NCBI GenBank assembly: GCA_905178155.1
Contig: CAJINV010000002.1
Span: 6,118,476 to 6,182,475 of the forward strand
Source of the DNA: Amoebophrya sp. A120
Taxonomy: Eukaryota > Protista > Dinoflagellata
Direction of reading: 5' to 3'
DNA: 64,000 nt
Position numbers and translations under genes: made by a program. The first letter of the stretch is position 1. Every line of letters begins with the position of its first letter. Below are positions 5,462 to 63,048 of this stretch, piece after piece. The notes beneath the pieces were generated by a model, which saw nothing but the letters and a program-made list of their open reading frames with translations, was not told the origin of the DNA and ran no database searches.

Positions 5462-6496
5462 TCACAGCGGCCCACTCTGCAGCGCGCGAATGGGGTGCCG
5501 ACGGACGGATAGATTCCGGAGGTTCTTCCCCAGACCCTCGACCTGCTTGATTTTCCGGCCGGAGATGAACGACCAAGCGCGGCAGTACTGGTCTAGAAAG
5601 CGCGGAATGCTGAAGAACCGGTCCAGCGGCTCCATGCGATCGCCGTCTAGGCCTCGGAAATCCTGGTGCACCTCCGCGAAGGGCACGTTGCCCAGCACTT
5701 CGGCCTTTCCGATCACCAGGGTCGGGTTGGGATTGTCGTTCGTCGCTTTGGGGTTCCTCTCCAACACGGCAGTGGCAATCCAGGAAAACGGCTCCTCCGT
5801 CTTCATCCGGTGCAACTCCACCGCTTCCTTCTCGCGCGACCGGTTTTTCAGCTTCAGGTTCGCGACCGAGTTCGGGTTCGGGTCGATTTCCCCCAGCGTG
5901 GTGCTTGTAAGGAGCATCGGGTTGAACCGGCAGGCGAGAAAGTAGCGCCTACCGGGAAAATTCTCGTCGCGGTCCAAGTGGTCGAGCCAAAACAGCCCCA
6001 AATCCTTGCCCATGTCGACCATCCGCTTTTCGCGGAACCACCGTTTCACCGCGTACCGGTGCCGCCTCCGAATGATCCACATTAACTATCAAATGTAAAA
6101 ATGTCTGGGTTTCGAAGAAATCCAACTTGTCATGCTAAGTCTGGATCATGCAAAAATCTGTCTTGCGTGATCGCCAAAAGTCGCGCTCTTTTAACCAACA
6201 CGAGACGCACTTTCTCATGCAGGATAGGCATGATAAAGACCTCGCAAAATCTGTCATGCTAGGTCCTGCATTCCAGACCGCTTGGGGCATCGAAATTTTG
6301 CATGACAAGTTTCTATTCTTCCAGACCCAGACATTTTTGCAATCCATATCAACAAGCGCACCACGATTTTCAGCCGGCACGGTGTTCGAAAGGTGTCCTT
6401 TTTCTCGTGCACCGAGCTCCCGAGCGCAGAGGCGACAAATTTCGCGTCGTACCGCGTGAACTCGCGACGGGCGGTGTTGCTGTTGATCTTTGTGAG
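5462..6496 (-). CDS. Hypothetical protein interrupted by introner 6087-6348; 5' end unresolved
   Basis: Removing element plus one direct repeat gives ...RLKIVVRLL|MWIIRRRHRY...; frame open upstream to a TAA at 6497-6499. Confidence 0.5.
6087..6348. mobile_element. Introner family A
   Basis: TATCAAATGTAAAAATGTCTGGG...CCAGACCCAGACATTTTTGCAATCCATA; flanks TTAAC/TCAAC. Confidence 0.9.
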
Positions 6497-7218
6497 TTAC
6501 TCAAACACATTGTCCGACGCTTCATTCGGCTTTTTTTCCTCATGAGGATCTATGAATACGAATCACCATCAAGAAGCTAAGGTGACGCTCCGGCACCAGT
6601 GCTGCACCTTGCGGAAACATGAACAAACGAGCATGTAGTATACACAGCGTCGTCCGGGCCGTAACTCGCCGGTATTCTTGGCGTCATTCCCTTCCCCGGC
6701 TCGTAGCCACCAAATCCGCAACACATATCCGAATACTGCTTCCACAAGCTGCCGCCGGCCTTTTTGTTGTCTTCCAATGCGTCTTCGACTACTGGATTGC
6801 GGATGATATCGGCCGCAGCTTCCGCGCCCAGGTCCTTCTGCTGGTTGACTGCGCGGCCGACAGCAGCAGCGCCGACGTCCGTTTGGATGATAGGCTGGTT
6901 GACAGTAGAAGCTTAGTCAACGAACTGAGCAAATTTAGCAACGCAGAGAATTTGAAAAAAAATGACACGAGACAAAGAAGAAAACAGTCCAAATTGTACC
7001 TCGTCCTCGTCTTCCTCCGCCTCTGCGTTTGCGGCTTGACCTCCCTTGCCCGCTGCTTTTATGGAAGCAGAACTAACAGGAGTCACGGGCTTTGTCGTTG
7101 CGGGGAAAGATCAGATTCAGACCGTTTACTTGTTATGAGGCACGACCTTGTAACAAGCCAGCCCGATGGATTGCTCAGTGCAAAGTTGTAGCGTTGTAGT
7201 TTGGTCGTGCCCTTCAAT

Positions 7219-10200
7219 TTAATATTTTCTGCATTTTTTTTTTGCTCGCAACCTAGACATAGAGTGAACCTGAGAAATAAACGCATGAGGAAAATTCTGC
7301 AGCCAGATGACTCCTCTCGTCTCTGATCCCGTACCCTGGCTCTCACTAGATTCGTTCAGCAGCGTGAGCACATCCCAGTCGTGAATCGTCACGCTCATGA
7401 CCACCATCTGACTGTATAAAGTCCTTTGCAGGCGAAACAAGTTCTGCACCAGGATTTTCATCTTCGGCAGCCGCAGCTCGGCGTCGTCCGAGTGCTCCGC
7501 CCGTTCCACGATGGACACCGCGTGGTCGCACACCTCCTTCGCTTTCTCGTAGTTCCGCTCCACACTGGCGTAGTAGCAGGAAAAATTCAGGTGCGAGACC
7601 AGCAGTTCGTAAGAGATGTGTTGCGAGGAGATGGTGACCGGGTTGCTGTCCCGATTCATGCCCCCGCCGGCCGCTTCGCTATTGCTCAAACTCGACGTGA
7701 CCGAGAACTGGTGCTGGATGAAGATTTTCGCCAGGCGAATCGACTCCGTGTAGCAGTGCCGGGACAGAATGCTGTTTTGCTGGATTGTCCGCAAGGAGTG
7801 GTGCATCGCCATCACGCACATGTAGCGGTACCAATCGGCCTTCCAGCAGACCCACTTCGCGATCAGCTCCAAGTTTTCCAAAACGGTATTCCGCGTCATC
7901 TGTACCTCACAGGGGACCGGCGTTCTTGCCGACAAGTTTTCCAGCAGCATAAAACTCCCGGCCGCGATTGTGGGCTTGTCGTTCTTCTGCGAACCGCCCC
8001 CCGCGGCGGACGGGTTCATGACCTGCTTGAGCAACTCCGTCTTCGAGGCAATCGTCGTCCCCGCGGCTGATGCACCTGTTGTCCCGGTCGGGCCCCCAGC
8101 CGCGGGCCCTTGCGGACCTCCGTTCGCACCCCCACTGCCGGATCCGTGCGCGTTTTGCCGCAGTTCCCGGACGGTTATGTCTTGCATCATTTCCGTATGA
8201 CAGTGCACAACTCCCCCTCTCCCTCATTTGTCATGCAAAATCCCAAATCTCCCTTCTGCCTCCTGTTAGCACTCTTTGCATGACAGATTCCGAAAGCCAA
8301 AACAGCACTACATTTGCCCAGAAATTTCTCATGCAAAAGCTGCATCTTTGCCAGCGCTTGCGTTGCTGTTCATGCAACACAAATGAGGGGGAGGGGGAGT
8401 TGTGCAGTGTCATATTCCGCGGTGATTACCCCCGCAGCTTGCATGGTGGCGTTCTTCTGGTTTCCGGCCTGCTTCACAAAATCTCCCTTCTGGAACTGGT
8501 CCTCGTAAAAATTGGGTATGCGAGTGCACAACTCGGTCTATTCCTTGTTTGATGTCAAAGCGAAATTTCCACTCCAGCCCCCGGAAGCTGTGGATAGTAT
8601 TGCTGTTCTTCCTTGCTCCTAATACTCCTGTCGAAGATGCGATACAATTACAAATCACGAATAGAGGAAGTCACGTGCACTCTCATATTGAAGTTTTCCG
8701 TGACGAAGCACCGGCTGTCGAGGTGTTTCGTCAATAGCGCTAAATCCTCTCTCGTTTGGATCTCAATTGTGCAATCGCGGTAGGACAGACAGGGTAAGAC
8801 CACCGAGTCGATGAAGTCGGAGATTTGTAAGGACATTTGCTCCACTTTGTGGCCAAACTCCGTCCGGTCCAGGTGTCCCTTGTCGTACAATAAATACAAA
8901 TCGCGTAACCGCTGCTTGGCGCCAATCACGAATAACTCGCGGAGATCCGTTTCCAAACTGAAGAAAATTTTCTGCGTCATCGTGTCGTCCAGCCGAATGG
9001 AGCGAGACAGCAGGTCTGACGCGATTTTCAGACACCGCACCATCCGGCCGGGGCGGTCGCGAAGCAACGAGATGTTCGCGGACCGGAGGAAATCCTTCAC
9101 GTTTTCGTTTTCCGCCTTTTCCACGGTGATGAACGGCAACAGTTGATCGTTTTGGACCCCGGTGTGTGGGATATCTGGCGGCTTTTCCGCGTTGTCGATG
9201 TACGCGGTGGAGGTTTGGCCCTTCTTCCCCGCGTGCAACACCTGCAGGTCCTCGTTGTCCCGGTATTTCTGCAGCTCGTGATCCTTCAACAAATGGTAGT
9301 ACATCTCCCGGATCGCGAACACACCGGACAGGCCCGGCTGGTTTCGGCGGATGTATTTGATCTTGCCTCCGTCCGAAGAACTGTGCGCTCCTGAGCCCCC
9401 TTGTTTCGCCCGGATCCTCTCGTGCAGACGCCCGTACGTCCAATTCAAATCCAGCGCTTGCAACGCTCGGCGGCCCCGCTTCGCCTTGTTGGCTTCCCAC
9501 TCCGCAACGAAGTCGATCAAAGACTGGATTTTGTACTGCGGCCACTTCTTTCGCTTCATCTGGCGGTAAATCGCGTCCGGCGTCTGCTTGCCCTCCTGAA
9601 TTTGCTTCTTGAACGCCGACAGTTCGTCGACGACTTCCGATACCTCCCCCTCGATCGCCATGGCCCAGTAGAGGACCTTCACGCAGTCCTTTTGCTTCGG
9701 GAAATGGTAGAAGGCGGAATTCTGGATGGCGGACTGGGACTCGCCGAGGTTCCCCTTCGGCAGGATGTCTTCGAAGCCCCCGGTGGCGGCGCCGGGGGAA
9801 ACGTAGGAAATTTCCGCGAAGGGGCGGATCACCTTGAACTCGAGCTGCTTGTAGCCAAGCGAGAAGAGCCCGTTGAAGTAGTTGAGGAGCTCTGACTCCA
9901 GTTTGTCGAACCGTATCCGCTCGTTCAGCTTCAGCTCCAAACTTGCGGCTCCCGTGGCTGCGGTGTTCCGCACTTCCGGCGCGCGGAGATACAGTGTGCA
10001 GGTCTGGGGGGTCACGCAATAGTCCACCGGGAGCAGGGCCGGAATCTTGATGCAATCGTTGTTGTTCAGAATCCCGGGGTAGCTGTCCTGCACGCCGCCG
10101 TTTTTTGAGCGGAGCGCGGGCGGGAGCAATTGCTGCTCCCATTCCGGGTAGGAAATATCCGCTTCCACAATGTTCACGGCTTCGGAGGCGCCTTCATTTT

Positions 10201-10282
10201 CGTACAGGTTCCAGGATTGCCCGACGGGAACGCTGGCGGCCGCGGCGCCGGAGGTGACGGAGGACGAATTTCCGTTGCCCAT
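7219..10282 (-). CDS. ~887-aa protein with N-terminal MGNGNSS and a divergent C-terminal 14-3-3-like domain; 2 introner introns
   Basis: ORFs 8648-10372 and 7219-8208 join (TENFN|FYEDQ; ITAE|MMQD). Motifs DRPGRMV, VIGAKQR, KADWYRY, LNFSCYY, KILVQNL parallel 14-3-3 ERYDEMV, VIGARR, KGDYYRY, LNFSVFYY, LIMQLL; 3' end uncertain. Confidence 0.65.
8196..8414. mobile_element. Introner family G
   Basis: TATGACAGTGCACAACTCCCCCTC...GAGGGGGAGTTGTGCAGTGTCATA; perfect TTCCG repeat. Confidence 0.9.
8517..8687. mobile_element. Degenerate introner family G
   Basis: TATGCGAGTGCAC...GTGCACTCTCATA; flanks TTGGG/TTGAA; removal restores frame. Confidence 0.75.
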
Positions 10283-18369: not shown

Positions 18370-21300
18370 TCACAGCAGAATCTCATCTTCCTCCACCACC
18401 GTACCCACCATCATGTTCGCCGTTTTGCCAGCACTGCTACCAGCTTCAAAACCAAAAGCGCCGCCTGCCACTTTCCGACCGCCAGTACCATCTGATAGTT
18501 CTGCTGGATTTCCCGGCGTCCATCGACAACCTTTGAAACCCGTGGTCAAGAACTCGCGGTCGAGATTTCTCCCGATGAAAACCATTCGATTGACCTTTTC
18601 CAGTAGACCGGCTTTATCCTTCCGGTTCTCAAACACCAACTTCTCCGTTTGCAACTGCATGTGAATTCCGTGAAATGCGAAGACTGCAAAGTTACTGCTC
18701 TTGCCCTTGCTCCCAGTCGGTTTGTTCATCAGCGGCCGTTGTTTATCTCCTGCCCCTTCCACGTCCTTCACGCACACCACGCCCTTCATGCGGAAGATGT
18801 CGACCCCTTTCGTTTTCAGCAGTTCCTGGAACCAAACATTCAGCTTCTGCAAGTCGAACAGGAACGGTTGATCTGCCTCAGCTGTAAAATCTTTTCTCCC
18901 CGCTGCTACTGCGCTGGAAGTTGTTGATGTAGTTCCGCTTGATGATGTAGTCGACGCACAACTCGCAGATAGATCGATCCCCACGCTGAAGATCGACTCG
19001 TCGTGTTGGTGGTCGGCTCCGGCTTCCAGCAGAAATTCCGGGTCCATCTCCAGAATCCGGTCGAGTTGGAACGCTTTCTGGTTTAAATATGCATTGCAAA
19101 AATGTCTGGGTCTGGAAGGATGCAACTTATCATGCTAAGTCTGGATAGTACAAAAATTTGTTTTGCATGATTACCAAAAGGTGTCCACGTTTGAACAAGT
19201 TTAGCGGCAGTTTGTCATGCAGGACAGACATGATAGGGACGTCGCAGGACCTGTCATGCTAAGTCCTGCATTGCAGACCTCATGGGGCATGGAAAATATG
19301 CATGACAAGTTTGCATTCTTCCAGACCCTGATATTTTTACATTTGGTATTAAAACTTCTTTCGCGACGTCGAGATTCTCGAACCGCACTGTCTCCTTGAT
19401 GCTCGCGACGGAATTGATCTTCCGTATCCGCTGCTTGATGCTGCTTAGAATTTTCTTCGACTCCGCGTGCGGGTTGGGCGCGTTCAATTTCGTCAGCGCC
19501 TCTTCCACAACGAGGTCGCACTTGTTCAGCAGGATGCGGTCGGCAAAGGCAACCTAATAGAAAGTTTTTTTTTTTTTTGCTGCATTGGGAGGGTGATTGA
19601 TATCTGCAGTAGGTCGCATTTTCAAATTGATTCATCACAATTCACTAGCTGCCATCGAACAAAATAAATAATTGAGAGAATTCAAAGAACAAAATCACCG
19701 GGACGTCGAGCGATAGCGAACAACATCACAACAAATTTCTTTGGGCGCAATTTATGCTACATGCATTTCGTATGCAGGTGCAGCGGACGAGGATCCGCGA
19801 GCGGCTAGAGTGGGCGCATGATCACTGTCGCATTCGCAGCGCGGCGCGGGCTTTAATGGCTTCGCAGCGGCAGCTACGGCTTCTGCTGTCGCGGTTGGTG
19901 TGTGAGCGTGGGCCTGGGCAAATTCATTGGATAAAGAACTCCAGCGCGTGGATGAAATCTTTTGATTTTTTACTTTAATCACGAGCGCATTCTCGGCATT
20001 GGGCAGGAAAAGTGCAGTTTTGCGTGAGGGCTGCAAAAGGTTTGCGTCAGTTGCGTCAGAAAAAGTCCCAAAAACCATCTCAAACTCAATTGATTTTTGC
20101 TAACATCTACAAACAAAAGTATACCACACCATCGCTATTCAAAAACCTACTCATTTGATCAAATTCAAAATCATCAACATGAACATTGCGAATAACTACA
20201 GTATGTAGTACTACGGAAAAAAAAATATCAATATCCAAATGAAATTCTACCTGTTCATGACATTCGTTTTCCACCCCCGCCGGCTTCTCCTCGTCTAAGT
20301 GTTGCAAGAAATGTTTTGCATCAATGACCGTGACGATTCCGTCGAGTTTAAAATACCGCTGGATTTCGGCGTCAACGAAAAACGTTTGCGCGACCGGCGC
20401 CGGGTCCGCGAGACCGGTGGTTTCGATTATCACGTGGTCGATTTTGAACGTGTTGCTTGTTGATATCGAAACTTTATATGAATTGCAACAGTATCATATT
20501 TTCTTGTAAGAATAGAAATTCAAATTAGATCACAAACTTGCTCGGCATTAGAAATGGAATTTGCCATGCTGGTGCAGCACCAGCTTCTTGGGAAAAAGAT
20601 GTGTCACGCATGACTGTACTTTTTCCTCGACAATTACGATACTTTTGCAATGCATACTGTGGCCGGCGGGGTTGTGTGTCCTGTTGCATCCTCGTCCTCC
20701 GTCATTCTCGACCCCGTTCGATTCAACAGGTTTTTCAAGCCTTTTATCAAATCCCCCCGTACGGTGCAGCAAATGCAGCCGTTGTTCATTTCGATCAACA
20801 TTTCCTCCCCGAGGTCTTCTTTTTGGAATATTTATGCATTGCAAAAGTATCGCACTAGTATGAATCGCATGACAAATTTCCTCAGCATGGGAAATGAAGT
20901 TTGTAATGCGAATTTACCAGAAGAAAAAGATTTGTAATGCATGATGAATGCAATTACTACGAGTACGATACTTTTGCAATTCATAATATCAAGCTGTCGT
21001 CGATCCCCACTTCGCCGAATTCATTTTATCAAATGTAAAAATGCCTGGGTCTGGAAGAATGCAACTTGTCATGCTAAATCTGAATCAGGAAAAAAACTGT
21101 GTTGCATGATTGCCAAAAGTTGTGCATTTTTGACCTAATCGAGAGGCAGTTTCTCATGCAGGATAGGCATTGGAAAGGCTTCGCAGAATCTGTCACGCTA
21201 TGTCCTACATACCAGACCTCATGGGTTATGGAAAACCTGCATGACAAATCTGGCAATCTTCCAGACCCAGACATTTTTGCAATCCATACGTTTTCGATTA

Positions 21301-23199
21301 CGGCGATTCGCTTCCTCGTCGTGTCTACTGCCAAGGACTCTGTCTTTGTAGTTCCTCCTTTTTCATCGTCTGCTACAGAAGTTCTCGTGTCTAAATTTGC
21401 GTTGGTTTCCTTCAAAATCTTGTTCAGTAGCGTAGTTTTTCCCGACCCTAGGAAGCCAGTAAGAATCGTCACAGGAATTTTCTTCGGCCTAGCTGCCGGC
21501 TTACTTTTTGCCGGAACAGCTGTAGTACTTTGTGATGCTGCTTTGTGCTCTGCTCGTTCTGCGTCCTCCTGCTGACACGCCTCGGCAACACAATGCGAAG
21601 TGGAAGTAGTAGATGTTGTTGTAATTATTTCTGGCTCTAGTAACTTAACAACAGGACCACCAAAGCCACTTTCCGGCGCCTCCGCTTCTGTTTTGCTGTT
21701 TGCAGCAACCGGAACTGCCCCTGCGCCGCTACTGCTCAAAGACTTACTCGAGCTTCGACTGTTCGCCGTGCTGGATGAACTACCAGCGCCGATTTGCGAA
21801 CTGCAATACCGCATCCGATCGAGGACAAAATCCCGGATCTCCGCTGCCGTCATTTCTTGCTGCTCGCTGTCGCTACTTGTGGTTCCAGCCGACAGTGCAC
21901 TTTTGTTGCTGTTCATCATTTCCTGCTCCTGTTCCAAGAACATCACACTCAAAATTGCTTGGTACTCCACCTTTGCACGGGAAAAAGCTTGCAAGTCCTC
22001 TAAAAGCCCAGCTCGCTGCAGGTACAGTGCGGAGATTTCCTTGCGGATGATCCCAATCACCGTGCGCCCGACCACTTTGTCCGCGGCAACCAAATCCCGA
22101 AACAACGGGAGCAAAACCTTGTTGCAAAACTGCTGCGGGTCGCTCAGGCACAGGTGCTTGTAGTTCTCGTAGGACGAGGAGGTGCTCGCATTGTCGCCGC
22201 AAAGCTGCGCTTGGATGATCTCCCGGATTGCGTGCTGCGACTTCTCTATCACACAGAAAGAAAACTACCCAGGCATATTTTCATCTGCATATATGCACAA
22301 ATTGTAAAAGCATGAAAAGAATTTTCTGTCTGGCATGTGCTAAAAGCCAACATGTTGCTAATTTTATTTTTGCAAATCAAATGCACTACCCTGCTAGGTT
22401 TTTTTTCTGCGATATTTTCTACCTTCTGCCCAGCGCGCTTCAAAAGTTGCTCAACAGACTCGAACTGAAGCTGGTGTGGCGGATGGTGAAGCTTGTTGCT
22501 CGTGGTTCCATTCGGAGTAGTAGTTCTGTTGGAGCCACCAGTTGTACCGGTATCCTCGGTATCTGACTCGTCCTTGGGCAGAAAGTACGCCTTCTCCCAA
22601 GCTTCAAACGCGCGTTGCACGCACTGCATCGCCTGGAAAAATTCCTTGTCCTTGCGCAGGCTTTTATGCATCGCAAAAGTATCGCATAGGTGGTGGTTTA
22701 TTTGCCATAGAAAATTATAACGTATATCTATGCAAAAATTTGATGATGTAATTTTGCTGATTTGATGCCTTAGGCCATAAAGTTATGCAGGACCACTGGT
22801 GGTACGATCAAGTACGATACTCTTGCATCGGATAGCTTTCCGCATTTTGCAACTCCTCCTTCCAGGCCAGCCCGGCCTGGGGGTTGCTGGATTCTCCACT
22901 GCAAATATACTTGGGTCTGGAAAGATGCAGCCAATTTGTAGTGTTGCTGGTGTCCTCTGCATGATGCAGCGATCTCTCATACGGCATCACAACACGACAG
23001 AGCTTGCTCTTCCGAGGCAGCTTCTTGCATGATCGACATTCGTAAATCGCATGAAAAATTGCCTTTCAGCACGACAAAAAATCTACTTAACCCATTATCG
23101 TCTTCATGCAACACAGATTTTGCGCTTTTACGAATTATATCGCATCGCAAACTCAGACCAAAACATATTTGCAATGCATATGGAACGGTCCACGACCAT
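18370..23199 (-). CDS. CobW/COG0523 (ZNG1/CBWD-like) G3E metallochaperone GTPase with long N-terminal extension (~871 aa); 7 introner introns plus GT-AG intron 19554-20250
   Basis: Spliced product has TGFLGSGKTT, IAVIEN|EFGEVGID, NNGCICCTVRGDL, IIETTGLADPAP, EQ|VAFADRILLNKCD, DIFRMKG, MVFIGRNLD; start may lie further upstream. Confidence 0.9.
19088..19348. mobile_element. Introner family A
   Basis: TIRs; perfect TTAAA repeat; junction KEVL|NQKAF. Confidence 0.9.
20477..20656. mobile_element. Degenerate introner family B
   Basis: TATGAATTGCAACAGTATC...GATACTTTTGCAATGCATA; flanks CTTTA/CTGTG; frame restored. Confidence 0.8.
20833..20985. mobile_element. Introner family B
   Basis: TATGCATTGCAAAAGTATCG...CGATACTTTTGCAATTCATA; flanks ATATT/ATATC. 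Confidence 0.9.
21027..21288. mobile_element. Introner family A
   Basis: TIRs; flanks CATTT/CGTTT; splits the conserved ENEFG motif. Confidence 0.92.
22247..22414. mobile_element. Introner family E
   Basis: TATCACACAGAAAGAAAACTA...TAGGTTTTTTTTCTGCGATA; flanks TTCTC/TTTTC; QKVEK|SQH. Confidence 0.8.
22665..22834. mobile_element. Introner family B
   Basis: TIRs; perfect GCTTT repeat. Confidence 0.88.
22893..23180. mobile_element. Degenerate introner family A
   Basis: Left TIR decayed (TCTCCACTGCAAATATACTTGGGTCTGG); flanks TGGAT/TGGAA. Confidence 0.8.
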
Positions 23200-42700: not shown

Positions 42701-45700
42701 TTCGCCAAATTCAGATCGCTCGCGGCGGCGCAGGTGGGCACGTTCGCGATATCGAGAGGCTCCAAATCCTCCTGGCCGTCGCGGCATCGGGGCTTGACAC
42801 ATGTTGGCAGCAATTCTTTTTCTAAGCCTATTCTCAATGGCGGCTGGAAGCTCGTGAAAGTTTTGCTCATCCACGGGCAGGTTGCAGGCTGGTCCGGCTG
42901 TAGCTTCGGTTCTTCATGTCGAGCTACACATTCGAATTCGTGTTCGTGTACAGGTGTCGCTACAACTTTGGGGACGGAGATACCAACGGGATCTTGTTGC
43001 TGCGACACCAGAGTTGTCGTGCAAGAAGACAAAATCGGCACTGGGATTGGAGGATCACTGTCCTTGTCGAGTCCTGTCAGGCCGCTGGGGTCTAAGGCAG
43101 AACTGTTTTTCATCGCGTGGCTAGCCTTGATGTTCTGCTCTTTCGGTTGCTCACCTTGATGCCACAGATCGTTTCTCTTCTTGAATTGTTCGAAATGACT
43201 TCGCGCTTCAGCTACCTCCGGTCGCAATGTTGACCGATTGAAACGACAAGCAGAGTCATCAACATCGTCGTTCGTGGTTGAGTCAAGATCCGAATCGCTA
43301 TCATCCGACGACGAATCGGACGACCACGGCGCGGCAGCTGTAGCTCCAGGTAGCGCAAAAGCAGCGTCGCGGTCCTCTTCAAATCTTATCGCAGAAGTTG
43401 TTTTTGCATTTAACGCGGCTCCTTGAAGTTGTCCTAAAAATCGAGGGGGCCGCTCAATGTAGTTGTCCATCCGGGCAGGTCGGTTTTTGCTGTCAGGAAT
43501 TATTATCTGTGGTAGTTCTGTGACCCGTTTTTCACAAGTCTCCTCTTTCTCAACGTGGTCCTTTGCGAGGTTTTCATCGGCATCTTCGTCGGATGAAAAG
43601 TAACTGCTGACCGAGCTGCTGTCTTCCTCGGACGAACACGACGAAGAGTCGCTGCTGACCGAGCTGCTGCTCTCATGAGATGAAAAGTCGCTGCTGTCTT
43701 CATCGGAAAGGTCTTCCTGAAGCGTCAGCGTGTCCTCAACATTGTCGATGTTCATTTTCAGAGCCATCTTCTTGTTCTTCTCGACATCACTACTAATTTT
43801 ATCCTGCTCGTCCCCCTCGTTCTTGTGTTCCATCAAGGCCGCCGCGGCCCGTCTTTGCTCTGCAGCGTCACCGGCTTTTCTTCTCTTCTGCTCCCGCTCC
43901 TCACCACTGTTCATGTTCTCATCTTTTTCGCTGCTTTTTCTACTTCCACACCCATCATCCCTGTCCTTGCCACCTCGATCGCCCTCGTCCTCGTTTTCAT
44001 CCCCGCCCGGGTTAGATTTGTCATTTCCGCCTTTTTTATCGCTGTCTGGATGCTGTCGTTGATCCTTCCCCTCGCTGTTGTCTGGCTCTGGTCCGTGGTT
44101 GTTCCCTTTATCTTCGTCCCCAGCACCAGAAGGAGGACCACCAGGACCAGCTCCGGCTCCGCCGGAGTTGTTATCATCTGGCGCATGATCGTTATCATCC
44201 TGATCCTCATCGTCCGAACTTGTACCGTCTGAAAAGTCATCGTCGAAATCATCATAAAACTCGCTGTCTCCGTCCTCCCGGGTGGCGCCGTCCTCCGGCC
44301 ACAGGTTCGTGTACATCGCGTCTCGGTCGATCCCGTGCTCCATCAGAAACTTGATCTCAAAAGCATTCCGCTCACTCGCCTGCGGCAAGCCTGCGGGTAA
44401 AATTGCGCCGTGCTGCAGCAGCCACTGCACCGCGGCGTCGTTGTTCTCCTCGATGGCATGGAGAATCGGGGTGTAGCAAAAATGCTCCGACCGGTCGATT
44501 TGATTCACGAGAAACAGCTGTGCTTTCGTGAACTTTTTTTTCGCTTCTTCTGCGTGGTTGACGGTGGGAATGCCTGCGTGTTCCTCTCCTGCTGCTCCCT
44601 CGATTCCGTTCTGACCGTTCTCTTGAAAATCACCAGGTCGAGGTCCACCTCCTCGTGCATTAATGTCGTGGAAAGTTGCTTTATTCTGCTCTTTACTCCT
44701 ACCATTTGTCAAGTTCTTCGGGGTCTCGAACCCGAAGTAATTGGCCGCAAGACGCTGTTGGAACGTCTGTTCGTGCTGCTGGGTGAGGAAATCCTTCACT
44801 TTCTGTTCCACCGCCACCTTCTCGCATTCCTCGTCGGAGGAAACTGGTTCTTCCTTGATTCTAATCATACTCGGATCCTCGTTGTCTTGATCTTGCAGTT
44901 CTACTCCTGCTGCCTGTTCTTGCACTGGTTCATCAACGAGGACTCCTGCCGATAGTACTTGTTTTGGTGCCCCTGCTCGTGCTGATTCTCCTTGCAGTGA
45001 TTGGGATTGCTTTGCTCCTTTGTTCATCTCTCCTTCGACTTCGACTCCCACTATCCCACGAAAAAACTGTTTCACTGTGATGATTTTGCAAGATCTGCAT
45101 CACAAGTTTGTTACACATGACACTGAAAATTTGTCATGCGCGCTGCCCAAGGGAAAACACGCTTGAAAATCCAATGTCTTGCAGGTCTAGCAAGACAAAT
45201 AGTTCTGTGTTCCATTTTTCTGCATCACAAGTTCACAGTGAAACAGTTTTTTCTTGCGATACCCACCTCGGCAGCTTTAATCCGAGTCGTGTTTCTCCGC
45301 TTCTCCTCCTGTTCCATCGCCACCTGCTTCTTCAACTTTTTTACATCCCGGTCCAGAAGCAAAGGCAGCCCGGCGCGGTATTTGTAGATGAGTTCCAAGG
45401 TGTCCGGGCTCAGCAGCCACTCGTCGCAGGGCCATTCCAGATCCGTTTCCTTTTCCATCACGGTGATGGGCTCGAAGCCGAACGTGTGAATCGTGGTTGC
45501 CGCGTTCGTTCGGATCCCGCCGCAGGGGCCAATGAGGCACTTCTTCATGTCGTCCGGAGGGAGCAGAGGCGGGGTGAGGACGCGGTCCCGATCCTCGTAC
45601 TGCTGCTCCCCTTTTTGATTCCGTCCGCAGAAGTCGAACAAATACTGCATAACTTCCACCGCATCCTTTTCCACGGCATGAAAGAAACAAGATCGCCCCG

Positions 45701-48700
45701 TTTGGTGATCGAGCCTGAAGAGTTCCAAATTTTCCTCCTCCAAGAGCCACTTCACAGCCGCCACGCACTTCTTCCTGGATTTCAGGTTCCGACTGCTGTT
45801 GTAAAAATTCTCCATCTTCCGGCTGTCGACACAAAGATAGTAATTCAGCTCCCGCACCACCATGTGCAGCAAAGTTCCGCCCTTCATGCCCGGAACGGAG
45901 CCGACCAGCGGCGGCGCGCCGATGGACAGATTCTTCAGGTTGTCAAACAGTTTCACCGGCCGTTCCAAGTTGGTGGAGCTTGGCAGAGCAGTTTTCAACG
46001 ATAGCAGCCCGTCCTTCAGCTCCGTCAGGAACGAGTTGTCGTCGTAATTGAATTTTTTCTTTTTTTCTGGTCTTTTGTTCAACATCACTGGGCGGAGCTC
46101 CAGTTCCCCGTTGCTGGGATGCTGTTGGTGATGATCCGGTCCAGCGATCATAGAGTTGTTATCCTGGTGCCCTTTTGGTTGTGATTCGACAGAGCAGGAC
46201 CTTTTCCGATTATGATTCGCCGGTAGTTGTTTCTTTCTCCTTTTCGCCCCTCCTCCAGACGTGTTCCGGGAGGAGCAAACCGACGCCTTCGCGTTCTTGT
46301 TGTGCGAGCCGCTTTTCAATAATGTAGAACTAGAAGAACCTCCAGCCGCTTCTATATCGATGTCCATTGGCGTCGACGTGTGGTCGACCAGTAAAATGCT
46401 TTTGTCCATCATCCAGTCAGCCTCGGTTGTTTGCTGCTCCGGCGAACTGCTCTTACTGCATTTTGTGCTGCTGTTGTAAAAGTTTTCGACGTTACCAACA
46501 TCTCTTCTAGAAGTTTTTGTCGTCGTGGTCATGAATCTCCTCCCTTCCGAATAGTAGTCAAGAATTTTTTTCCGTGCCGTGTCCCAAATCTGCGGCAACT
46601 CGTGCTCCAGCAGGGCGTGCAGGTCGGAGACGTAGCACTTCCCGATCGTTTTCTCGTTTTGGTCCAGAGTCGCGAGAAAATCGTTGCACTTCCCTTCCTT
46701 CTATGCATTGCAAAAGTATCGCACTAGTAGAAATTGCATCACAAATTTTTTCAAGAAGAAATAAAATGAAATTTGTAAATGCTATTTCACCTAAAAGGGG
46801 ATATTTGTCATGCACGATAGCAATTACTTACTACGAGTACGATACTTTTGCACAGGATACCTTCTTCGCCGGCGGGTGCCGGTTCTGCGCCAGAGTCCAG
46901 ACCGCGTTGGATAGGACCAACTTCACGATGTATGCATTGCAAATATGTCTGGGGCTGGAAGATTGCCAGGCTTGTCATGCATATTTTGCATGACCCATGA
47001 TGTCTGTGATGCATGCTCTAGCATCACAGATTTTTGGAGGGCTTTGCGATGCCTCTACCGCATGAGAAATGTCCCCTCCGCGTAGGCCAAACTGGAGTTC
47101 TCTTGCTGCTCATGCAATACAGATTTTTTTAGAATCCAGAGACAGCATCACAAGTTTAGAATCTTCCAGACCTAGACATATTTGCATTTCATACGATGCC
47201 CTCCAACCCGATTTCACCCGTGATCCCGAAGTCTCGGGGGATGAAAAAATTCCCGGAACCCAGGTTGATCAAGGACCGCAACGCGGAAAAAACCGGCGTC
47301 GCGCCGTCGGGAGCGCGGTAGTTGATGTTCATTTCCTTCAGCAGGGCGGAGATTTTCGCCAGATGGGCCTTCTTATCAAATGTAAAAATGTCTGGGTCTG
47401 GAAGAATGCACGTTTGTCATGCTTGTTTCGCATGACTCCTAAATCTGTCATGCACAGTACCCAAGAGACCCATTTTTCTGTCATGCAGAAACGCAGTATG
47501 TCATGCAGAATAGGCAACACCTAGAAGCTCAGAAACTTGTCATGCTGAGCCAGCATTTGTAGCCTCATCATGAGACGCCACCCAGCATCACAAGTTTCCA
47601 GACCCAGACACTTTTACATTTGATACTTCTGCGGGTAAAACCGCTCGTCGTCGTGGAGTGGAAGGTAGTGCTATGCAAGAAAAAAACTGTGTAAGTGTAA
47701 ATTTGTGTTGCAGAACATGCAACAGAGTTACGCCTGTCATGCCAGACAGCCGTGAAGTCCTCTTTTCACGTGTGTTTTCCCTTACAAGCCACGCATGACA
47801 GGTTTTCTCTGTCATGTAGAGCAAATTTGTGATGCTGTTTCTCAAAGAAAGTTACACTTACACACTTTTTTTCCTGGATAAGTGCTTGTTTTGCTGCACA
47901 AGAACTCCTAGTTGCTTTGCCGCCGCAGTTGTAGATGAGTTTATTTCGCCCCCACCAGGTGCTGCTGGTGCAAGAACCCCTCCTACAACTCTTGAAGTAG
48001 AAGTAGCCGTCACATGATTCCGAGGGCTTACCTGATTCGTCGTCACCCAGGCGTTGGCTGCGACCATGGCTTTGTCGTTCGTGTTGCAAGGAAAAATCCC
48101 CCCTCCCCATATTGAAAACGCATCCGTCAGAAAATTCGTCATGCAGATTTGTGACCACAAATCGGGTCTGCCTTGCAAGGAGGCCCAGTCAGGCTGTCCG
48201 CCAAGTTATGCAGGCGATTTGTAATGCTGTAAGGCCTACAGGGTAGCCGTCTACCATGCTAGGCGCATACACCAAAAGGCCCCCACCTAGGCTCAGGATC
48301 TGCGTGCATTCCTCTACTGCAACACAAATTTGATTTGTGTATCCAATTCCAGCATCAGAAGTTTCGTTTTGATATGGGGAGGGGGGATTTTTCCTTTTGA
48401 TAGTTCGGTCTCCAGCACTTGAACAACAGCTCCGGCTCGAAGCGCTGGACCCCGTGGAACAGCGTCCAGTGCAGGACCGGGAAGTGCATCGTGTGGCCGA
48501 ACTGCACCATCGCGATATGCATTGCAAATATGTCTGGGTCTGGAAGGTTGCAACTTGTGACGCTGTCCTTGGATTCCAAAAAAATCTGTGTTGCATGACT
48601 AGCAAGAGGAGCCCAGTTTCTTCTACACGGAGAGGGCATTTCTCATGCGGATTACGCATAAGGAAGCCCCCTAAAAATCTGCGATGCTAGGCCATGCCTC

Positions 48701-51700
48701 ACAGGCGTCACATGTCCTACAAAATATGCATGACAAACCTGGCACTCTTCCAGACCCAGACATTTTTGCACTTGATAGGCGAAGCTGGTATACAAATCTT
48801 GCGTCGGAAACGCCTTCAGCAGCCACTTCAAATGGTACCATTTACACACGTATGGATTGCAAAAATGTCTGGGTCTGGAAACTTGTAATGCTAAAAGTGA
48901 ATGGGAGACGCACTGCAATACGCAGCTATGCATGACAAACTTTTTGGCTCCCATGTCTTACGTATTCCGCATGGCAAGCTGCGTTTTTGCATGACAGGTA
49001 AGAGGGCCTCTTCGTGCCTATGCAACACAGATTCTCGAGTCATGCCAGACAAGCATGACAAACTTGCATTCTTCCAGACCCAGACATAATTTTTGCATTT
49101 GATAACACGTGAAACGCGGGCAGGCACACCGTCGCAATCTGCTGGTTGAACGCCTTTTTCCAGGTCGTCATCACCTGTTTGTAGTCGCTCACGGTGCACT
49201 TCTCCTTCTGCTCACAAGAAGTTGTTGTACTGTTCAACATCCCGGATGACGAGCTCTTGTTGTTCCCGGCGCTCGTCGTCCCTGTGGTTTGGAAATGCCC
49301 AAGCGCGGTCTGTTCCTCGATCACTTGGTCCACGTTGCTCGCGAAAAACATCACCCGGGTCGGCTCCACCTGGAAGGTCACCGGATTCACGTATCAAGTG
49401 CAAATATGTCTGGGTCTGGAAATTTGTGATGCAAGAAAGATTATAGTGAGCACACTGCAATGCGCAGCCCAGCATGACAAGTTTTTCCGTGGTTCTGCGT
49501 TGCGTACTCCGTATGAGAAACTGCATTTTTGCATGACAGGCAACAGGAGCTCTTCGTGGCCACGCAATACAGATTTCAGAGTCATACCAGATCAGCATGG
49601 CAAATCTCGGAATCTTCCAGACCCAGACATATTTGCATTCCATATCACGGTCTGCCACGCAAAATTCTCCGCGTGATTCTGCGCCGTCGCGTTCGCAGAC
49701 CGGGTCCGCTTCAAAGGTGGTGTCAAAGGTAAAAATGTCTGGGTCTGGAAACTTGTGATGCTGGGTGGCGTCTCATGATGAGGCTACAAATGCTGGCTCA
49801 GCATGACAAGTTTCTGAGCTCCTAGGGCTAGGTGTTGCCTATTCTGCATGACAAACACAATCACAAACTGCGTTCCTGCATGACAGAAAAATGGAGCGCT
49901 TGTGTAACGTGCATGACAGATTTAAGAGTCATGCCAGACAAGCATGAAAAACATGAATTCTTCCAGACCCAGACATTTTTACACTTGATAGGTGGCTGGG
50001 ATAGTTTATTCGAGGTCCCGGCAGCCCCATAATTTGCAATCAAGGCCTGATTTGATGATGCAGCTCCAGCTGTTGTTCCCGCCGCTTCAAGTAGCCCATA
50101 ATTCGGGTACAGCGGATTCGACGCCGCCAAGTACCGCACCTTGCACAGATCCGGCGCTTTCACGAGCAACAGCTTGTATCGGTCGACCGAGAGAGATTGC
50201 CCGTTAGAGATGTGAGCGGAGAAAATCGTTTTTAGGTTCCCCGGCGAATCCGTCACATCGAACAACCGCAACAGCATCCGGTTCAAGAAAGCGATCAAGT
50301 GCAAGCAACTTTTGCTGTAGTCCTCCTTCCGAAAAAACTTGCACGCAAACAGAGGCACCAGCCGCTGCGCCTCCGGCAGGACATAGTCGGAAATGTTGGT
50401 CTCGGGGTACTTAAACTTCGAGGGGAAAATCCCCGATCTCGTGCTCGGCAAGCCGCAGAGACAAGTCGCCCGGTCGGTGGGGAGCTGGGACGGGTTGTCG
50501 TAAGTGTTGTTGTAGCGGTAACAGTGCTTCCTGCGGCGCTTCCGCGCCTGTTGTAGCTGGGTTCTCCGCTGCTCCTCCAATTGCTCTTCGGTAAGTAGCT
50601 GGTCATCTCCGGCGGTGATCTTGAAATCTTCAACGCTTTTGTAGTTGCTTTTCGTATTTCTATCACCTGCCTGCCCTGATGAACACGACGACGTGGACCG
50701 CCCCATTGCATTCATCGGCGGAGAGCTCTCCGGGGCGGAAGCAGGAGATGAAGCAGCACTAGAAGAATTTTCCTTCCTCACAGTGCTCCTGTGCCCACAC
50801 TCGTTTTCGTCCAGAAAAAGCTGCGTCACCTCCTGCCACAGCTTTTTTCCGAACTCCGAGTCTGGGCAGTACTCGTTCGGCAAGTAATAATCTTTCGATC
50901 TGTAGTCCGCAACTTCGTCTTTACTCATCATGTGAAAGAGTTTGAAGTTCTCCCCGCTCTGCGTGGGTGGCATTTCGTGCTGGAGCAAAATCGTGAACAG
51001 TAGCCGCTTCTGATCCACTCCGAACCTTCCATCGGACACGACTGTGGTGCTCTTCGGGAGCTGGCTGTTGGTAGTTGCGGAAGCGGAGCTGCCGCTACTG
51101 AGCTCCATCTGGTCGGCGAAGGATGAAGAAGATGTATTTGCAATCATTTTCACTGCGTCAGCACCCGCACCAGCATTGTTCATCATTTTTGCGTTTTTCC
51201 TGTTCACTTCCTTGTTGTGCTTCGCCAGGAGCAGCTTCGCGACGTTTTGCAGATTGTTATTGCAGTAAATGGTTTCGTGCGCCACCTTCAAATCATGCTC
51301 GATCATCGGTTTCAAGAGAAGGAGAAACGCCTGCTCGCGAATTTTCTTCCGCTTTTCCAGTGCATTCTCGTCCGAGAGAGTTTCGTTCTCGTCGGTGCCG
51401 TCCGGGTTCCGGAATTCCCCGAAAAAATGAAGCAGCTGGTAGAAATCCGGCCACCTGTTGTCGTGGGGTTTTTGTGTTCTTGTAGTCGATCATTTACAAG
51501 GGAGTTGCCGCAGCATCAGGCTTCTAAGTATGTAATCTACTGACGCCCGCAGCTCTTGTCTCTCATCCGCACAGACATGAAGAACGAGAGTGCACATCAA
51601 TCACATGAAGTAAAAAAGTACTTACGCCAACAAGGTGCGAGGACCACGGTTCACTGTCAATATGTCAAACCCACATGTTGAGAGAACAACAAGCAGGCCA

Positions 51701-53308
51701 TATAGATACCTCAAGCTTTCCTGCCTCCCGGCGAAATCCAGCGCCTTTTGCCCGTGCGTCATCGCCAGGAGAAAGTACGACACCGTGTTCGTGCTGTCGT
51801 AAAGCAGATTTTTCCCCGTCAGTTTTTTGTGCTCCACCGCTTTCTCCAGCAAAAACGGGGCGAGTTCAAACCCGTAGTCGTAGTTCAGGAAGCCGTAGTG
51901 CATCGGGTTGCGGTCGAACTGCACGCCCCGGTGCGTCGCCAAGAACTTCGTGTCGTAACTATTATGGAAGCGCCAGGTTTGAAATCGCCAAAGTTGAAAT
52001 AGTTTGTGATGCATAAAATGCACTTGCAGAAGTGCCTGTCTTGCCGGCATGGCAAGTGAGGCAGATTGTGAGCCTATTTGGGGTTTGGGATACAGCTGCT
52101 AAAGGGGCATGACAAAAGCAGTCTTCTGTGCCCAAACAGCATGACAAATTGGATTCCGGTGCTCCGAAAATTTGTCATGCGCCGCTTAGAAATTGGTCTT
52201 CCAACTGGTATCCATTTTATGCATGACAAATTATTTCAACTTTGTCGATCTCAAACCGGACGCTTCCATAACTATCGAATCGAGCATCAAATTTCTCCAC
52301 GCACAGCCTCACCATCGGTAAATTTCCATAGTGGCAGATGTAGAAGAAAAGCCCCTGACCCCGGTGGTCCGGCTGGTTTAGGTCGATCTCGTAGTTTTCC
52401 AACACGAATTCCAGTAACTCCGTGGCATACTCGCTATTCACGAAAACCCTGCGCTTCAAGTCCTTTTTCGTGTTCCTCGTAAGCCACCACCGGAGCTCCG
52501 ATTCGGGCTTGCTCATCTCGCACAACTTTTTCAAACACGCTTTCTGCTCTTCCAGAAGCGACTTATTTGAATTACTTAATGTTCCGACGATGGAATTTGA
52601 TCTCGACCTTTTCCGTTTGTTGTTCGCCACGGTCACTGTCGTTCCTGTTGGTGCAGCTTGTTTCTTCATGGTCTTTATTGGCAAGTTTGTGTTCTCTAAG
52701 TCCTCTAGCAAACTGAAGTTGTAACTGTCCTCGTTGTGGCTTAGTAGCTTCTCGAAACTCCTGCGCTCCACCTCTTGCTCACAACCGCCGCGGTTCATGG
52801 CGCTGCTGGAAGATGATGAACTAGCTCCTTGCAGCTGCTGCGCGATGCTAGTAGAGAGGTTCTTGTTATAATCCTGAAGATGTTGAGGCATCATCAAACC
52901 AGACGCGGAAGCTGCTTCTGTCTGCTGATTTGCAGCACTTTTGGACGTCCTCGAAACAGTGCCTGATACTAGCCAGGACTTCGACGCTGTGTGGTTCAAG
53001 TTCACGGTCTCCTTGCTGTGTGTCGTGGAGGATATTAAAGCTCCCCCAGTCGTGCTGCCCGCCGTGGGGATAATATCATTATCCTCCTCCTCTTCTTCAT
53101 CGTTGTTGCTGTTCATGAGGCTGACAAGGTCGCTGTCCTTGTCCTTCCCAAGGATCCCATCGTTTCTTGCTTGTTCACCGGAGTTGTGGTCTAGGACCTT
53201 CATAGCCTTGTTGTCCTTCTTCTTCCCAGCTTTTGTATCTTTTCCGACTTTCCGCGAGGGTGCGGAGCCCGCTTTTTTGCCACGAGAGGCCGAAAACTTG
53301 TTCTCCAT
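39712..53308 (-). CDS. Giant (~3536 aa) protein with dispersed ankyrin-like repeats and long acidic disordered C terminus; 11 introner introns plus GT-AG intron 51455-51625
   Basis: All junctions in frame (net 10611 nt); ankyrin-like segments DLNQPDHRGQGLFFYICHYGNLPMVRLCVE, INYRAPDGATPVFSAL, DHQTGRSCFFHAVEKDAVEVMQYL, YTPILHAIEENNDAAVQWLLQHGA; last exon uncertain. Confidence 0.75.
41996..42050 (-). repeat. 15-bp coding tandem repeat (EQEPS x~4)
   Basis: GG(T/C)TCCTG(T/C)TCAGAA units. Confidence 0.8.
45052..45261. mobile_element. Introner family E
   Basis: TATCCCACGAAAAAACTGTTTCACTGTGA...TCACAGTGAAACAGTTTTTTCTTGCGATA; perfect CCCAC repeat. Confidence 0.9.
46702..46859. mobile_element. Introner family B
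   Basis: TIRs; perfect CCTTC repeat. Confidence 0.92.
46931..47193. mobile_element. Introner family A
   Basis: TIRs; perfect CGATG repeat. Confidence 0.92.
47374..47625. mobile_element. Introner family A
   Basis: TIRs; perfect CTTCT repeat; inverted homolog of 49721-49990. Confidence 0.92.
47672..47880. mobile_element. Introner family E
   Basis: TATGCAAGAAAAAAACTGTGTAAGTGTAA...TTACACTTACACACTTTTTTTCCTGGATA; perfect AGTGC repeat. Confidence 0.9.
48082..48402. mobile_element. Introner family C
   Basis: GGAAAAATCCCCCCTCCCCATA TIR; perfect GTTCG repeat. Confidence 0.9.
48516..48777. mobile_element. Introner family A
   Basis: TIRs; flanks CGCGA/GGCGA. Confidence 0.9.
48851..49104. mobile_element. 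Introner family A
   Basis: TIRs; perfect ACACG repeat. Confidence 0.92.
49392..49644. mobile_element. Introner family A
   Basis: TIRs; perfect TCACG repeat. Confidence 0.92.
49721..49990. mobile_element. Introner family A
   Basis: TIRs (left end TGTCAAAGG); perfect GGTGG repeat. Confidence 0.9.
51963..52270. mobile_element. Introner family D
   Basis: TIRs; perfect ACTAT repeat; junction RFDS|YDTK. Confidence 0.92.
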
Positions 53309-60546: not shown

Positions 60547-61472
60547 GACGGAAAACGTGGACCTTGTCTCAGCGTGAGAGAAGAGGTGGCGGTAAAACAG
60601 ACGCAAAAGGGAAAGGGTTGATGTGTTACTTTAAACAAAAACACCAGCCTAACAGTAGTCAAATCGGCTTGTAGAATGAAAAAATGTAAATAAAGTCCTC
60701 GGGACAATTCAATACAGAAATTCAGCGGGTAAGCTGTTCAGGTTGACGACCCAGCACCTGTACAAAACGGAAGCTGATTTATACATGCAAAATCAATTTG
60801 AGTCCACGAACTTGAAGCAACTTGACGATCACACTTCGTCTGACAACATGATCAGATAGCCTCGACTGGCCGACAACGCCACAAGCCCTGATGTACGACG
60901 CTGGTAACGATGAAGTAAAGAACGATTCCTTTCCGACACTGCGGGAACGACCCTGAAGATGACAAGTACGAATACGTCAGCTGTAGTAAATTATTTCAGA
61001 TCAGCAGATTCAGATAGGTCAACGGACGATGATAACGATTGTCGCGAAGATCATGTCTGTGCACGACTCACCACGGATGAGCATACTTGTGCTTGAACGA
61101 TGAAAGCTGAGAAGCAACGTTGTCCCCAACGGATAGCGAAGACCTCTGCCACACAGAAAACAAAAAGGGTCCGCCTTTGTCACGATAGTGAGCAAGAAGA
61201 GGACCCGGTCGGGAACGAACATTTTTCTTGACCGAAATAAAATTGGTTTGCTGTTGCAGAGCATCGGCGATTGAATGTGGTGAACAGCAGTGGTGCACGA
61301 GCGCAAATCAATACCAAGGCAGAACCTGCTTGCACGAACGGCATTCGGGTCAATATCCCACATCTTCCGAAGGCAATTCCAGGCTCAGAGCTGAGCTGCG
61401 AAATAGACATAAACGCGAATGGGTTTTAGCCGCACTTCAAGGCATCAGGTTTTCAATAGGTCTATAGTCTTT

Positions 61473-63048
61473 CTAGAGTTTCAGCCGCAATTTGTTATGA
61501 ACAGACCTATCGCTAGTGTAGAAGCACCCGACATGCAGGGTGAACGGGAGCGCATCCCCTTCGGAATAAACACAACGCTCGCCGCGAAGCGCGAGTGTGA
61601 AACCTTTCACCTTCTCTGCACGGTGCAAACAATACATCAAGCAGTGCGGTGATCCTAGTCCTGGATGCAAGGCCCGTGCCGCTTCGGGTGTCAACGGATA
61701 TGCTTCACCGTTTGGTAGCGTCGGGGCGTTCTGCATCACTTCAGAGGTAACTTCGAGCTTTGGAATGCCATTCGTCGCACACTCATCCAAGAGCCGCCGA
61801 GCGAGATAGTTGACAATTTCGGCCTCGGTGCGTTCCAGGGTTTCTAGAAAAGCTGTCCAAATCGAACCATTCGGCGAACCATCACTACTCGTGATGCTGG
61901 AGTTGGTTGGCCGCGCGTTTCGTGCTAGGTCTGCAATATCGCTACTGGGCAGGCGCTCATGGCTCTCGTCTTCGACTTCGCCTAAGCTGACAAACAGTGG
62001 CGCAGCAAGTGGCGCATCCTCTTCTTCGTCGATCCTTCTTTCAAGCTCACGATCATGGTACACGTAGAAGCTTCTCCGTAGAAGCATCGTGACAACAACA
62101 TCCAGACGCGGCCGGTCCCCGTTTCTCAAGGCCGGCTATCAAATGTAAAAATGTCTGGGTCTGGAAGAATACAGACTTGTGATGCGCATTTCAGGACACA
62201 GAAAAATTTCTCATGCATAGGTAGCGAAAGCTGCTCAGTTTCCGCCACCAAAATGGGGGATTTGTCATGCGGATTCGGCATTGCGAAAGTTTCTCGAAAA
62301 CTGCGATGCTAGAGCTCCCATACCAGACTTTCTGTGTCATGCCAAAACAGCATGACTCTTCCAGACCCAGACATTTTTGCATTTGATACCGGCGCACCAT
62401 CGGCGATTTCGTCGGTGATCGCAAATCTGGTTGCGACCCCCTTCGCGGCCGTTTCGAGTATTTTCTTCATGTAGTACTCGAAAACAAGGCCGTAATCCAC
62501 GCCGATCTGGGACCTCGCTATCTTGATGGAATGGAAGTAGTCCGCATTTCGGCAATCCAAAATTTGGATGTTCTCCTGGCCCAAGAAATGCATGACTTTC
62601 TTCCGAAGAACCTCAGGCAAGGAGCGTCGCTGGTTCGTCAGATTCCGCGTCGCCAGAACACACCAAATGTTGACCTGGTATAATTGAAGACGCTGTTCGC
62701 AAAGAACATCTGTCGAGTTTGCAAAGCAATGGGAATTCAAATCTCCAAGTAAGATGCAACAGAGTCACTTGGAAAGAAGAGAAAGATAAACTACTGATTC
62801 GGAAAAAAAATATCTAGGACCTGACTCGCCAGCATTTTGTTGGCCGTTCGCTTGTCGAGATTCTGCAAGCGCCCTTCGAGCGATTCCCGGTCCAGGTCGG
62901 CAATTTTCTGGACCCACTTTTCGTAGCTCCCTTTGTACCGGAGAAGAACGTTTTCAGCGGTGATTTTTGTTGGCTGGTTCGCCAGCTGCGGCTCCGCAGG
63001 TCCGTTTCCGGCAGGGACGGCTGCGGATGAAGAGGAGGCGGACGACAT
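61473..63048 (-). CDS. ~390-aa hypothetical protein; GT-AG intron 62675-62820 and one introner intron
   Basis: MLASQ|VNIWC and DGAP|ALRNG junctions in frame; LPEVLRKKVMHFL weakly F-box/SOCS-box-like. Confidence 0.6.
62137..62388. mobile_element. Introner family A
   Basis: TIRs; perfect CCGGC repeat. Confidence 0.92.

Follow-up and report, generated by a model that had tools for sequence, protein, structure and literature searches.

The introners of Amoebophrya sp. A120, short elements with terminal inverted repeats (TIRs), were found to share an internal motif, TGT[CGA]ATGC, whose copies are set at whole and half turns of the B-DNA helix and which was strongly selected in multiplying lineages and lost with age. 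The stretch analysed (hereafter the window) comprises 64,000 nucleotides of contig CAJINV010000002.1 (assembly GCA_905178155.1, positions 6,118,476 to 6,182,475, forward strand). At a rough probability of 0.6, the lattice of motif copies represents a set of putative double-stranded-DNA binding sites for one shared protein required for mobilisation of the elements. The elements themselves have been described before; the internal motif common to them, together with its lattice and pattern of selection, is apparently undescribed, as none of these was found in the literature searched.

Motif content of the elements

Strict copies of TGT[CGA]ATGC were counted on both strands of the window (46 on the plus and 50 on the minus strand, in line with the two directions given in the preliminary description). 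The 37 elements delimited there, with a total of 8,836 bp, contained 94 of the 96 copies (10.64 per kb), and the remaining 55,164 bp contained 2 (0.036 per kb); an equal frequency outside the elements, which had been raised earlier as a possible objection, was not seen. Dinucleotide shuffles of the elements gave a mean of 2.2 strict copies (maximum 6 in 100). An origin of the TG/CA-rich word by CpG decay was rejected on these shuffles (2.2 vs. 94 observed) and on the conservation described below, which survives correction for context.

The occurrence of the motif inside all TIR families, as first described, was borne out in 7 of 7 family clusters of the window and in 14 of 14 clusters of the window and the fetched loci together, with at least one copy in 371 of 388 elements; no strict copy is present in four window elements out of 37, namely the old ones at 20477, 22248, 22666 and 26457. 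Ten of eleven coordinates named in that description carry the motif, while 47808 is a copy with one mismatch between exact ones at 47793 and 47828. All 14 family consensuses hold 2–7 copies of a broad motif pattern, which was picked after the consensuses had been seen, spacing not being used. The 8-base word reported at first is real but too narrow: the consensus of 74 sites extends over an A-rich tract and two pyrimidines ahead of TGT[CGA][AT]TGC (roughly A-A-A-Y-Y-TGT[CGA][AT]TGC), with six nearly invariant core bases and two variable central ones. In the three canonical introns checked, 0, 1 and 0 broad matches were present.

Twenty-nine window elements were found automatically by TIR plus 5-bp target site duplication (TSD; a match of 4/5 or 5/5 was required), a search that gave 0 matches in the shuffled window, and 8 further window elements were delimited by hand. 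Extra copies were obtained from a metagenome scan with the family-A TIR pattern, which returned at least 147 stretches, all 76 loci listed being from assembly JACKZZ01. Since the longest 25 of 826 BLAST matches between the fetched loci and the window were element matches, these loci lie elsewhere or belong to a related strain. The 2 loci returned when viral contigs were scanned for the family-A TIR hold neither motif nor element and are chance matches. After removal of duplicates and of 8 entries above 360 bp, and addition of the 8 hand-delimited elements, the final set comprised 388 elements. Of these, 360 were grouped by interior homology into 14 clusters, and the 28 singletons were set aside; a few cluster members were inner pieces of elements, and two were dropped ahead of tree building. 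The families have at least 7 distinct TIR cores, several of them with related C-rich cores.

Helical phasing of motif copies

The helical repeat of B-DNA is 10.5 bp and that of A-form RNA about 11 bp. Motif copies on the same strand were whole turns apart, with 22 pairs at 31–33 bp in 13 of the 14 consensuses against a mean of 2.3 such pairs (maximum 11 in 5000) at randomised positions, and the 10.5-bp phasing remained once these pairs were taken out. Copies on opposite strands stood at half-integer turns (convergent pairs: R 0.62, phase 4.8; divergent pairs: R 0.53, phase 5.6), values that were matched by 0 of 3000 permutations. The periodogram of all 133 pairs combined showed a single sharp peak of 0.56 at 10.5 bp, with 0.37 at 10.25 and 10.75, 0.03 at 10.0 and 0.04 at 11.0; the maximum of the null across all periods was 0.29 in 1000. 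When one family was drawn per TIR group (7 groups), lattice scores of 0.47–0.68 were obtained in 30 of 30 combinations, and the 29 young copies of the window, which are not independent of the main set, gave 0.48 (null standard deviation 0.05). AAAA tracts, used as a control, were flat, with no 10.5-bp phase.

The lattice was followed by 12 of 14 families. Spacings of 15–17, 31–35, 45–50, 58–60, 64–70, 74–76, 84–85, 93–102 and 106 bp fall on it, and first inward copies begin 33–34, 42–45 or 53–56 bp from the terminus. The reiteration at about 20–45 bp noted in the preliminary description was real, but the spacing is discrete and phased to 10.5 bp rather than loose. As the spacings match whole and half helical turns, they likely form a docking pattern for a protein by which the spread of the elements is aided. 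That a 32-bp unit had recently been duplicated in tandem was rejected, the sequence after the first and that after the second copy being only 35% identical.

Length modes 10 bp apart were observed in family A (252 and 262 bp) and in D-type elements (311 and 321 bp), consistent with phase-preserving indels, although the inspected histograms of element length modulo 10.5 gave no clear rule.

Conservation of the motif

Substitutions were counted by parsimony on trees of 9 families with 340 copies. On internal branches the motif core had changed at 72 of 10669 positions, 0.20 times the spacer rate (0.21 after context correction), and on terminal branches at 350 of 10898, or 0.38 times; for the TIR cores the corresponding values were 0.22 and 0.52. 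The motif core rate was below 0.4 times that of the spacer in 9 of 9 families. An excess of conservation, which had been set against recent common ancestry as an explanation of the motif, was therefore present, at 0.20 times the spacer rate on internal branches. In family A, in which many TIRs had been selected by the search pattern, a bias bearing on this comparison, columns invariant on internal branches decayed alike on terminal branches, whether they belonged to the motif (0.021), the TIR core (0.021) or the ends (0.022).

The mean number of motifs was 1.0 in old candidates defined by their ends; elements of the main set have 4.2, and chance would give 0.11. In 8 old copies of the window, 14% of end positions had changed relative to the nearest young relative, and many small insertions were present. 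Old copies were not reached by a search with interior hidden Markov models in which the motif columns were masked, and searches with ends only gave few.

Terminus positions 5–10 evolved faster than the interior on terminal branches in all families (1.45 times) and carry a small set of alleles common to both ends and to families A and C, which suggests exchange between ends. The very tip of family C elements, and that of one small family, looks like an outward-directed copy of the motif at position 4.

Splicing and orientation

Transcript evidence was taken from contigs presumed to be of RNA type, all from one study. The raw RNA runs X9 and X10, with 12 and 3 reads placed in part, contributed no evidence. 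Among the 15 joints listed (of 30), 10 skipped an element together with one TSD copy, 3 were canonical introns and 2 resembled cross-mapping; a gap of 840 nt in contig X6 corresponds to removal of 8 further elements. Removal thus took place at non-GT-AG junctions in these contigs. The elements of the window interrupt minus-strand genes, and subtraction of 9 elements from 45262–50600 left 3052 nt in a frame free of stops. In two further joined stretches, stops occurred in every frame because the bounds ran past genes or other introns.

Copies poor in motif were skipped as well (22248 and 22666 with no broad match, 20477 with no strict match), and elements were inserted in both orientations (78:64 in 142 clustered elements, judged against the inferred gene strand). 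One or the other motif form was missing from the sense strand in 18 and 31 of 168 elements. Aged elements (20477–20656 and 33105–33324 in the window, and 2620–2813 of fetched locus L042) have accumulated many insertions of 2–8 bp, retain TAT..AAAA tips and continue to be spliced; a splicing signal may reside in these tips.

Proposed function and alternatives

The shared protein-binding site suggested in the preliminary description is supported by the excess conservation in combination with the B-DNA phasing, which are predicted by neither chance nor simple ancestry. Under the rule of whole and half turns, bound protein would come to lie on one face of B-DNA irrespective of the direction of a site. 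With the protein on one helical face, several bound copies would bend or wrap an element of 110–320 bp, and this may help to gather the element ends in a transposase complex, the role that subterminal repeats play in hAT and CACTA elements. New families would then be founded only by copies whose sites and phase are intact, and dead copies would decay. As the motif is common to families with different TIR cores, one cross-mobilising enzyme or host cofactor is indicated, so that these families would share one trans-acting factor.

The putative binder may tentatively be sought in an element-encoded transposase or accessory domain; with somewhat less confidence, it could be a host architectural factor borrowed for transposition, by analogy with IHF in Tn7-like elements. 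ApiAP2-type domains are a candidate for a host binder. That a single host DNA-binding protein reads the lattice, assembles the mobilisation complex and also flags the insert for U1-independent splicing is rather improbable; if it were so, intron birth and recognition would be coupled via one DNA code, and the massive spread without an obvious transposase would be explained. For the movement and splicing of A120 introners, the phased motif offers a bait for finding the protein and the lattice a specific control, namely spacer shifts of 5 bp versus 10 bp. A likely mobility signal (the interior lattice) is hereby separated from a likely splicing signal (ends and stem), and the motif may serve as a marker in the search for an autonomous partner and in spotting introners that have decayed.

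Several observations weigh against binding for mobilisation. Two of the 14 families lie off a single lattice (E4, −0.05; D11, 0.07), and all loci beyond the window stem from the one scan with the family-A pattern. The invariant motif columns of families C, D and E decayed less than their TIR cores (0.034–0.041 vs. 0.054–0.058), post-insertion constraint was estimated from covariance at s = 0.56 (confidence interval 0.19–1.27), and in the 8 old window copies compared with the nearest young relative 35 of 176 motif positions (20%) had changed against 239 of 777 spacer positions (31%). At least one motif was kept in 11 of 21 end-defined old candidates, whose interiors are unrecognisable and some of which are false. 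Weak selection after insertion may hence act on the motif. The orientation of family H was skewed (13:3, p 0.021, uncorrected), as was the strand of the motif (378:278 on the sense strand, 168 elements). No binder was identified, and no autonomous element was present among the long TIR pairs of the fetched loci, which were nested or carried inserts; no transposase is reported in A120 in the part of Farhat et al. covered here (PMC7789003). Finally, the subterminal motifs of CACTA elements are specific to each element, whereas here one motif recurs in families that differ in TIR core.

Part of this evidence would fit a host DNA-binding or chromatin protein that binds the lattice for the benefit of the host, elements with a lattice being better tolerated in genes and the families having converged on it; such a protein could, for example, mark non-canonical introns for co-transcriptional, U1-independent splicing or ease transcription through introners. 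This explanation is considered unlikely. The motif is found in every family, however unrelated the TIR cores, the estimate of s and the retention of about 1 motif in old copies (0.11 by chance) point to some constraint after insertion, and U1 small nuclear RNA was not detected in A120 according to the part of PMC7789003 covered. However, motif-less copies are still skipped, small insertions cost old copies both sites and spacing, the constraint on internal branches is roughly double that on terminal ones (0.20 vs. 0.38), and the three canonical introns are nearly free of broad matches.

Inheritance of motif and spacing from a single ancient element or module, with no present function, has little probability. 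The related C-rich TIR cores of several families and the spacers within the 31–33-bp pairs, 35% identical across families against 27% expected from composition, are in its favour, but it is largely refuted by the rate of the motif cores, 0.20 times that of the spacer. Moreover, ancestry would copy one spacing, yet many spacings fall on one 10.5-bp lattice, and the lattice remains when each TIR group is represented by one family.

Equally improbable is an action of the motif at the RNA level, whether in the arms of nested hairpins or as the site of an RNA-binding splicing factor, both of which had been offered in the preliminary description. In predicted folds the TIRs were paired at 0.80–0.94, 42% of 732 motif sites paired with a complementary copy at P > 0.5, and motif bases were paired more often than spacer bases (0.66–0.87 vs. 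0.55–0.65); the mild sense-strand skew also agrees with a role in RNA. Against this, only 26% of motif sites were paired in family A, and the copies of E4 (6:0 by strand) and J12 (2:0) have no complementary partners. The variable motif positions of paired ends matched in 31% of cases over 122 family-A copies, where 47% was expected, i.e. without compensatory covariation, and Rfam gave 0 matches at gathering score, so that neither mark of a structured RNA was found. Phasing was seen at 10.5 bp and not at 11, and elements are inserted and spliced in both orientations. Nested hairpins are thereby not supported, nor is an obligatory splicing-factor site: since motif-less old copies are skipped, insertion occurs both ways and covariation is lacking, the motif is not an obligatory splice signal or stem.

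That the A-tract and motif form a DNA-shape unit without a sequence-specific protein, bending the element or placing it on a histone or DVNP core and so aiding synapsis, is most improbable: an A/T tract does precede the motif (positions −5 to −1) and the lattice is helical, but six near-invariant core bases around two variable central ones are typical of base read-out, and AAAA tracts alone show no phasing.

Relation to known elements

The TIR families of the window, with TAT…ATA ends and a 5-bp target duplication, are the published A120 introners. As described by Farhat et al. 2021, these have an inverted repeat that starts TAT with an A-run, a 5-bp direct repeat and non-canonical junctions, are removed from transcripts and number tens of thousands (PMC7789003); organism and elements are the same as here. 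In the present set the TIR begins TAT with an A-run, termini are TAT in about 95% of elements, and the direct repeat at the borders is a perfect 5-bp TSD in 312 elements (window and fetched loci). Genome-wide repetition was evident from read depth, which was about 50× in unique bins and 1e4–1.7e5 in element bins, the latter being summed values and not copy number. Being short, non-coding and multi-copy with TIR and TSD, the elements also conform to miniature inverted-repeat transposable elements, and they are non-autonomous TIR elements.

hAT elements make TSDs of 8 bp and CACTA elements of 3 bp, each with a terminal consensus of its own; membership of either was ruled out by the 5-bp TSD and TAT termini. 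The likeness lies in their subterminal repeats, which are short motifs reiterated in both orientations, end-asymmetric and with AT-rich flanks, as is the A120 motif, here also conserved in mobile lineages. Such repeats are bound by BED domains in Hermes (hAT; PMC10368747) and by TNPA in En/Spm (CACTA; PMC2613891), transposon proteins needed for excision. Unlike these element-specific motifs, the A120 motif is common to at least 7 TIR cores, extends through the whole element and holds to a strict lattice of whole and half turns. In the ends of Tn7-like elements and CRISPR-associated transposons, multiple asymmetric TnsB sites are likewise spaced at helical pitch, and IHF, a host factor, assists transpososome architecture (PMC10201428); those systems differ from A120 introners in being bacterial, in having long sites only near the ends and in not being introns.

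Ginger elements have TGTNR termini and mostly 4-bp TSDs, with 5-bp TSDs in TDD-4/5 (PMC2836005); the A120 TSD matches this subset only, and membership was rejected on the TAT termini. An integrase-like enzyme is a plausible mobiliser of A120 introners. Gozashti et al. 2025 (PMC12130899) class the A120 families mostly as 'TIR DNA, Unknown' among 40 of the 58 A120 rows covered, with lengths that match those found here (about 107, 149, 209, 252–262, 278 and 305–321 bp). Their family 38, of about 808 bp with integrase-related open reading frames, a 5-bp TSD and TA/TA termini, is a candidate relative of the mobiliser.

In the text of Farhat et al. covered here, terminal inverted- and direct-repeat motifs and hairpins are the only ones treated, with no internal shared motif, phasing or selection (PMC7789003). 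A search of the supplements of PMC12130899, files 13 and 14 excepted, did not give the motif string, and the parts covered of PMC9860276, PMC11282704 and PMC12005148 hold nothing on an internal motif. No published description of motif or phasing was found in a search that excluded Fig. 3 and S19–S25 of PMC7789003 and took in the text only of the Roy et al. bioRxiv article.

Features of the window

The elements and other features of the window are listed in Table 1. Elements were depleted in CpG (observed/expected 0.57 vs. 1.07 in flanking DNA), which hints at methylation of repeats.

Table 1. Introners and other features of the window. Motif positions are given with strand; skipped, left out with one TSD copy in RNA-type contigs (length skipped in nt).
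Feature	Position	Strand	Remarks
Family A, 262 bp	6087..6348		motif 6128+, 6213+, 6252+, 6300-
Family B	8196..8414		motif 8229+, 8278-, 8327+
Family A	19088..19348		skipped (266)
Old C-like copy	20477..20656		no strict motif; still skipped (185)
Family C	20833..20985		31-bp pair 20902/20933; skipped (158)
Family A	21027..21288		skipped (267)
Old H/G-like copy	22248..22414		no strict or broad motif; still skipped (173)
Old C-like copy	22666..22833		no strict or broad motif; still skipped (175)
Old A copy	22893..23180		1 strict motif; skipped (293)
Family A	24330..24573
Family D, 322 bp	24631..24952		32-bp motif pairs close to both ends
Old A-like copy	26457..26756		no strict motif
Family C	27720..27864		motif 27753-, 27771-, 27788+, 27819+ (35-bp divergent, 31-bp tandem)
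Family A, reverse orientation	27886..28143		array 27966-, 28008-, 28028-, 28061-, 28092-
Family A	28193..28451		skipped (264)
Old C-like copy	30419..30581
Old A-like copy	30660..30927
Family A	30980..31241
Family E, 279 bp	31286..31564		motif copies almost all on one strand
Family A	31628..31888
Family A	32399..32666
Family F	32733..33043		32-bp pair 32880-/32912-
Old C-like copy	33105..33324
Family C	37738..37887		31-bp pair 37807/37838; skipped (155)
Family C	38480..38633		skipped (159)
Family H/G	45052..45261		motif 45097-, 45132+ (35 bp), 45222-
Family C	46702..46859
Family A	46931..47193
Family A, 252 bp	47374..47625		array 47415+, 47446+, 47479+, 47499+, 47538+, 47585-
Family H/G	47672..47880
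Family D	48082..48402		left end delimited by hand
Family A	48516..48777
Family A	48851..49104
Family A	49392..49644
Family A	49721..49990		array 49801-, 49846-, 49878-, 49911-
Family F	51963..52270		32-bp pair 52107-/52139-
Family A	62137..62388
CobW_C domain gene	18373-19134	-
PIG-M glycosylphosphatidylinositol (GPI) mannosyltransferase gene	24885-26456	-
GC-rich intergenic island	about 4100-4800
GC-rich intergenic island	about 10700-11900
GC-rich intergenic island	about 16800-17900
Imperfect palindrome, 94 bp	11754-11847		within GC-rich island

The PIG-M-like open reading frame at 24885–26456 showed 100% identity to an Amoebophrya sp. A120 protein, and the PIG-M of a close relative (P0002) was 91% identical to that of the window. 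Among the fetched loci, a 972-bp family-A element (L065, 6024–6995) had intact ends and TSD and carried an unrelated, apparently non-coding insert of ~700 bp.

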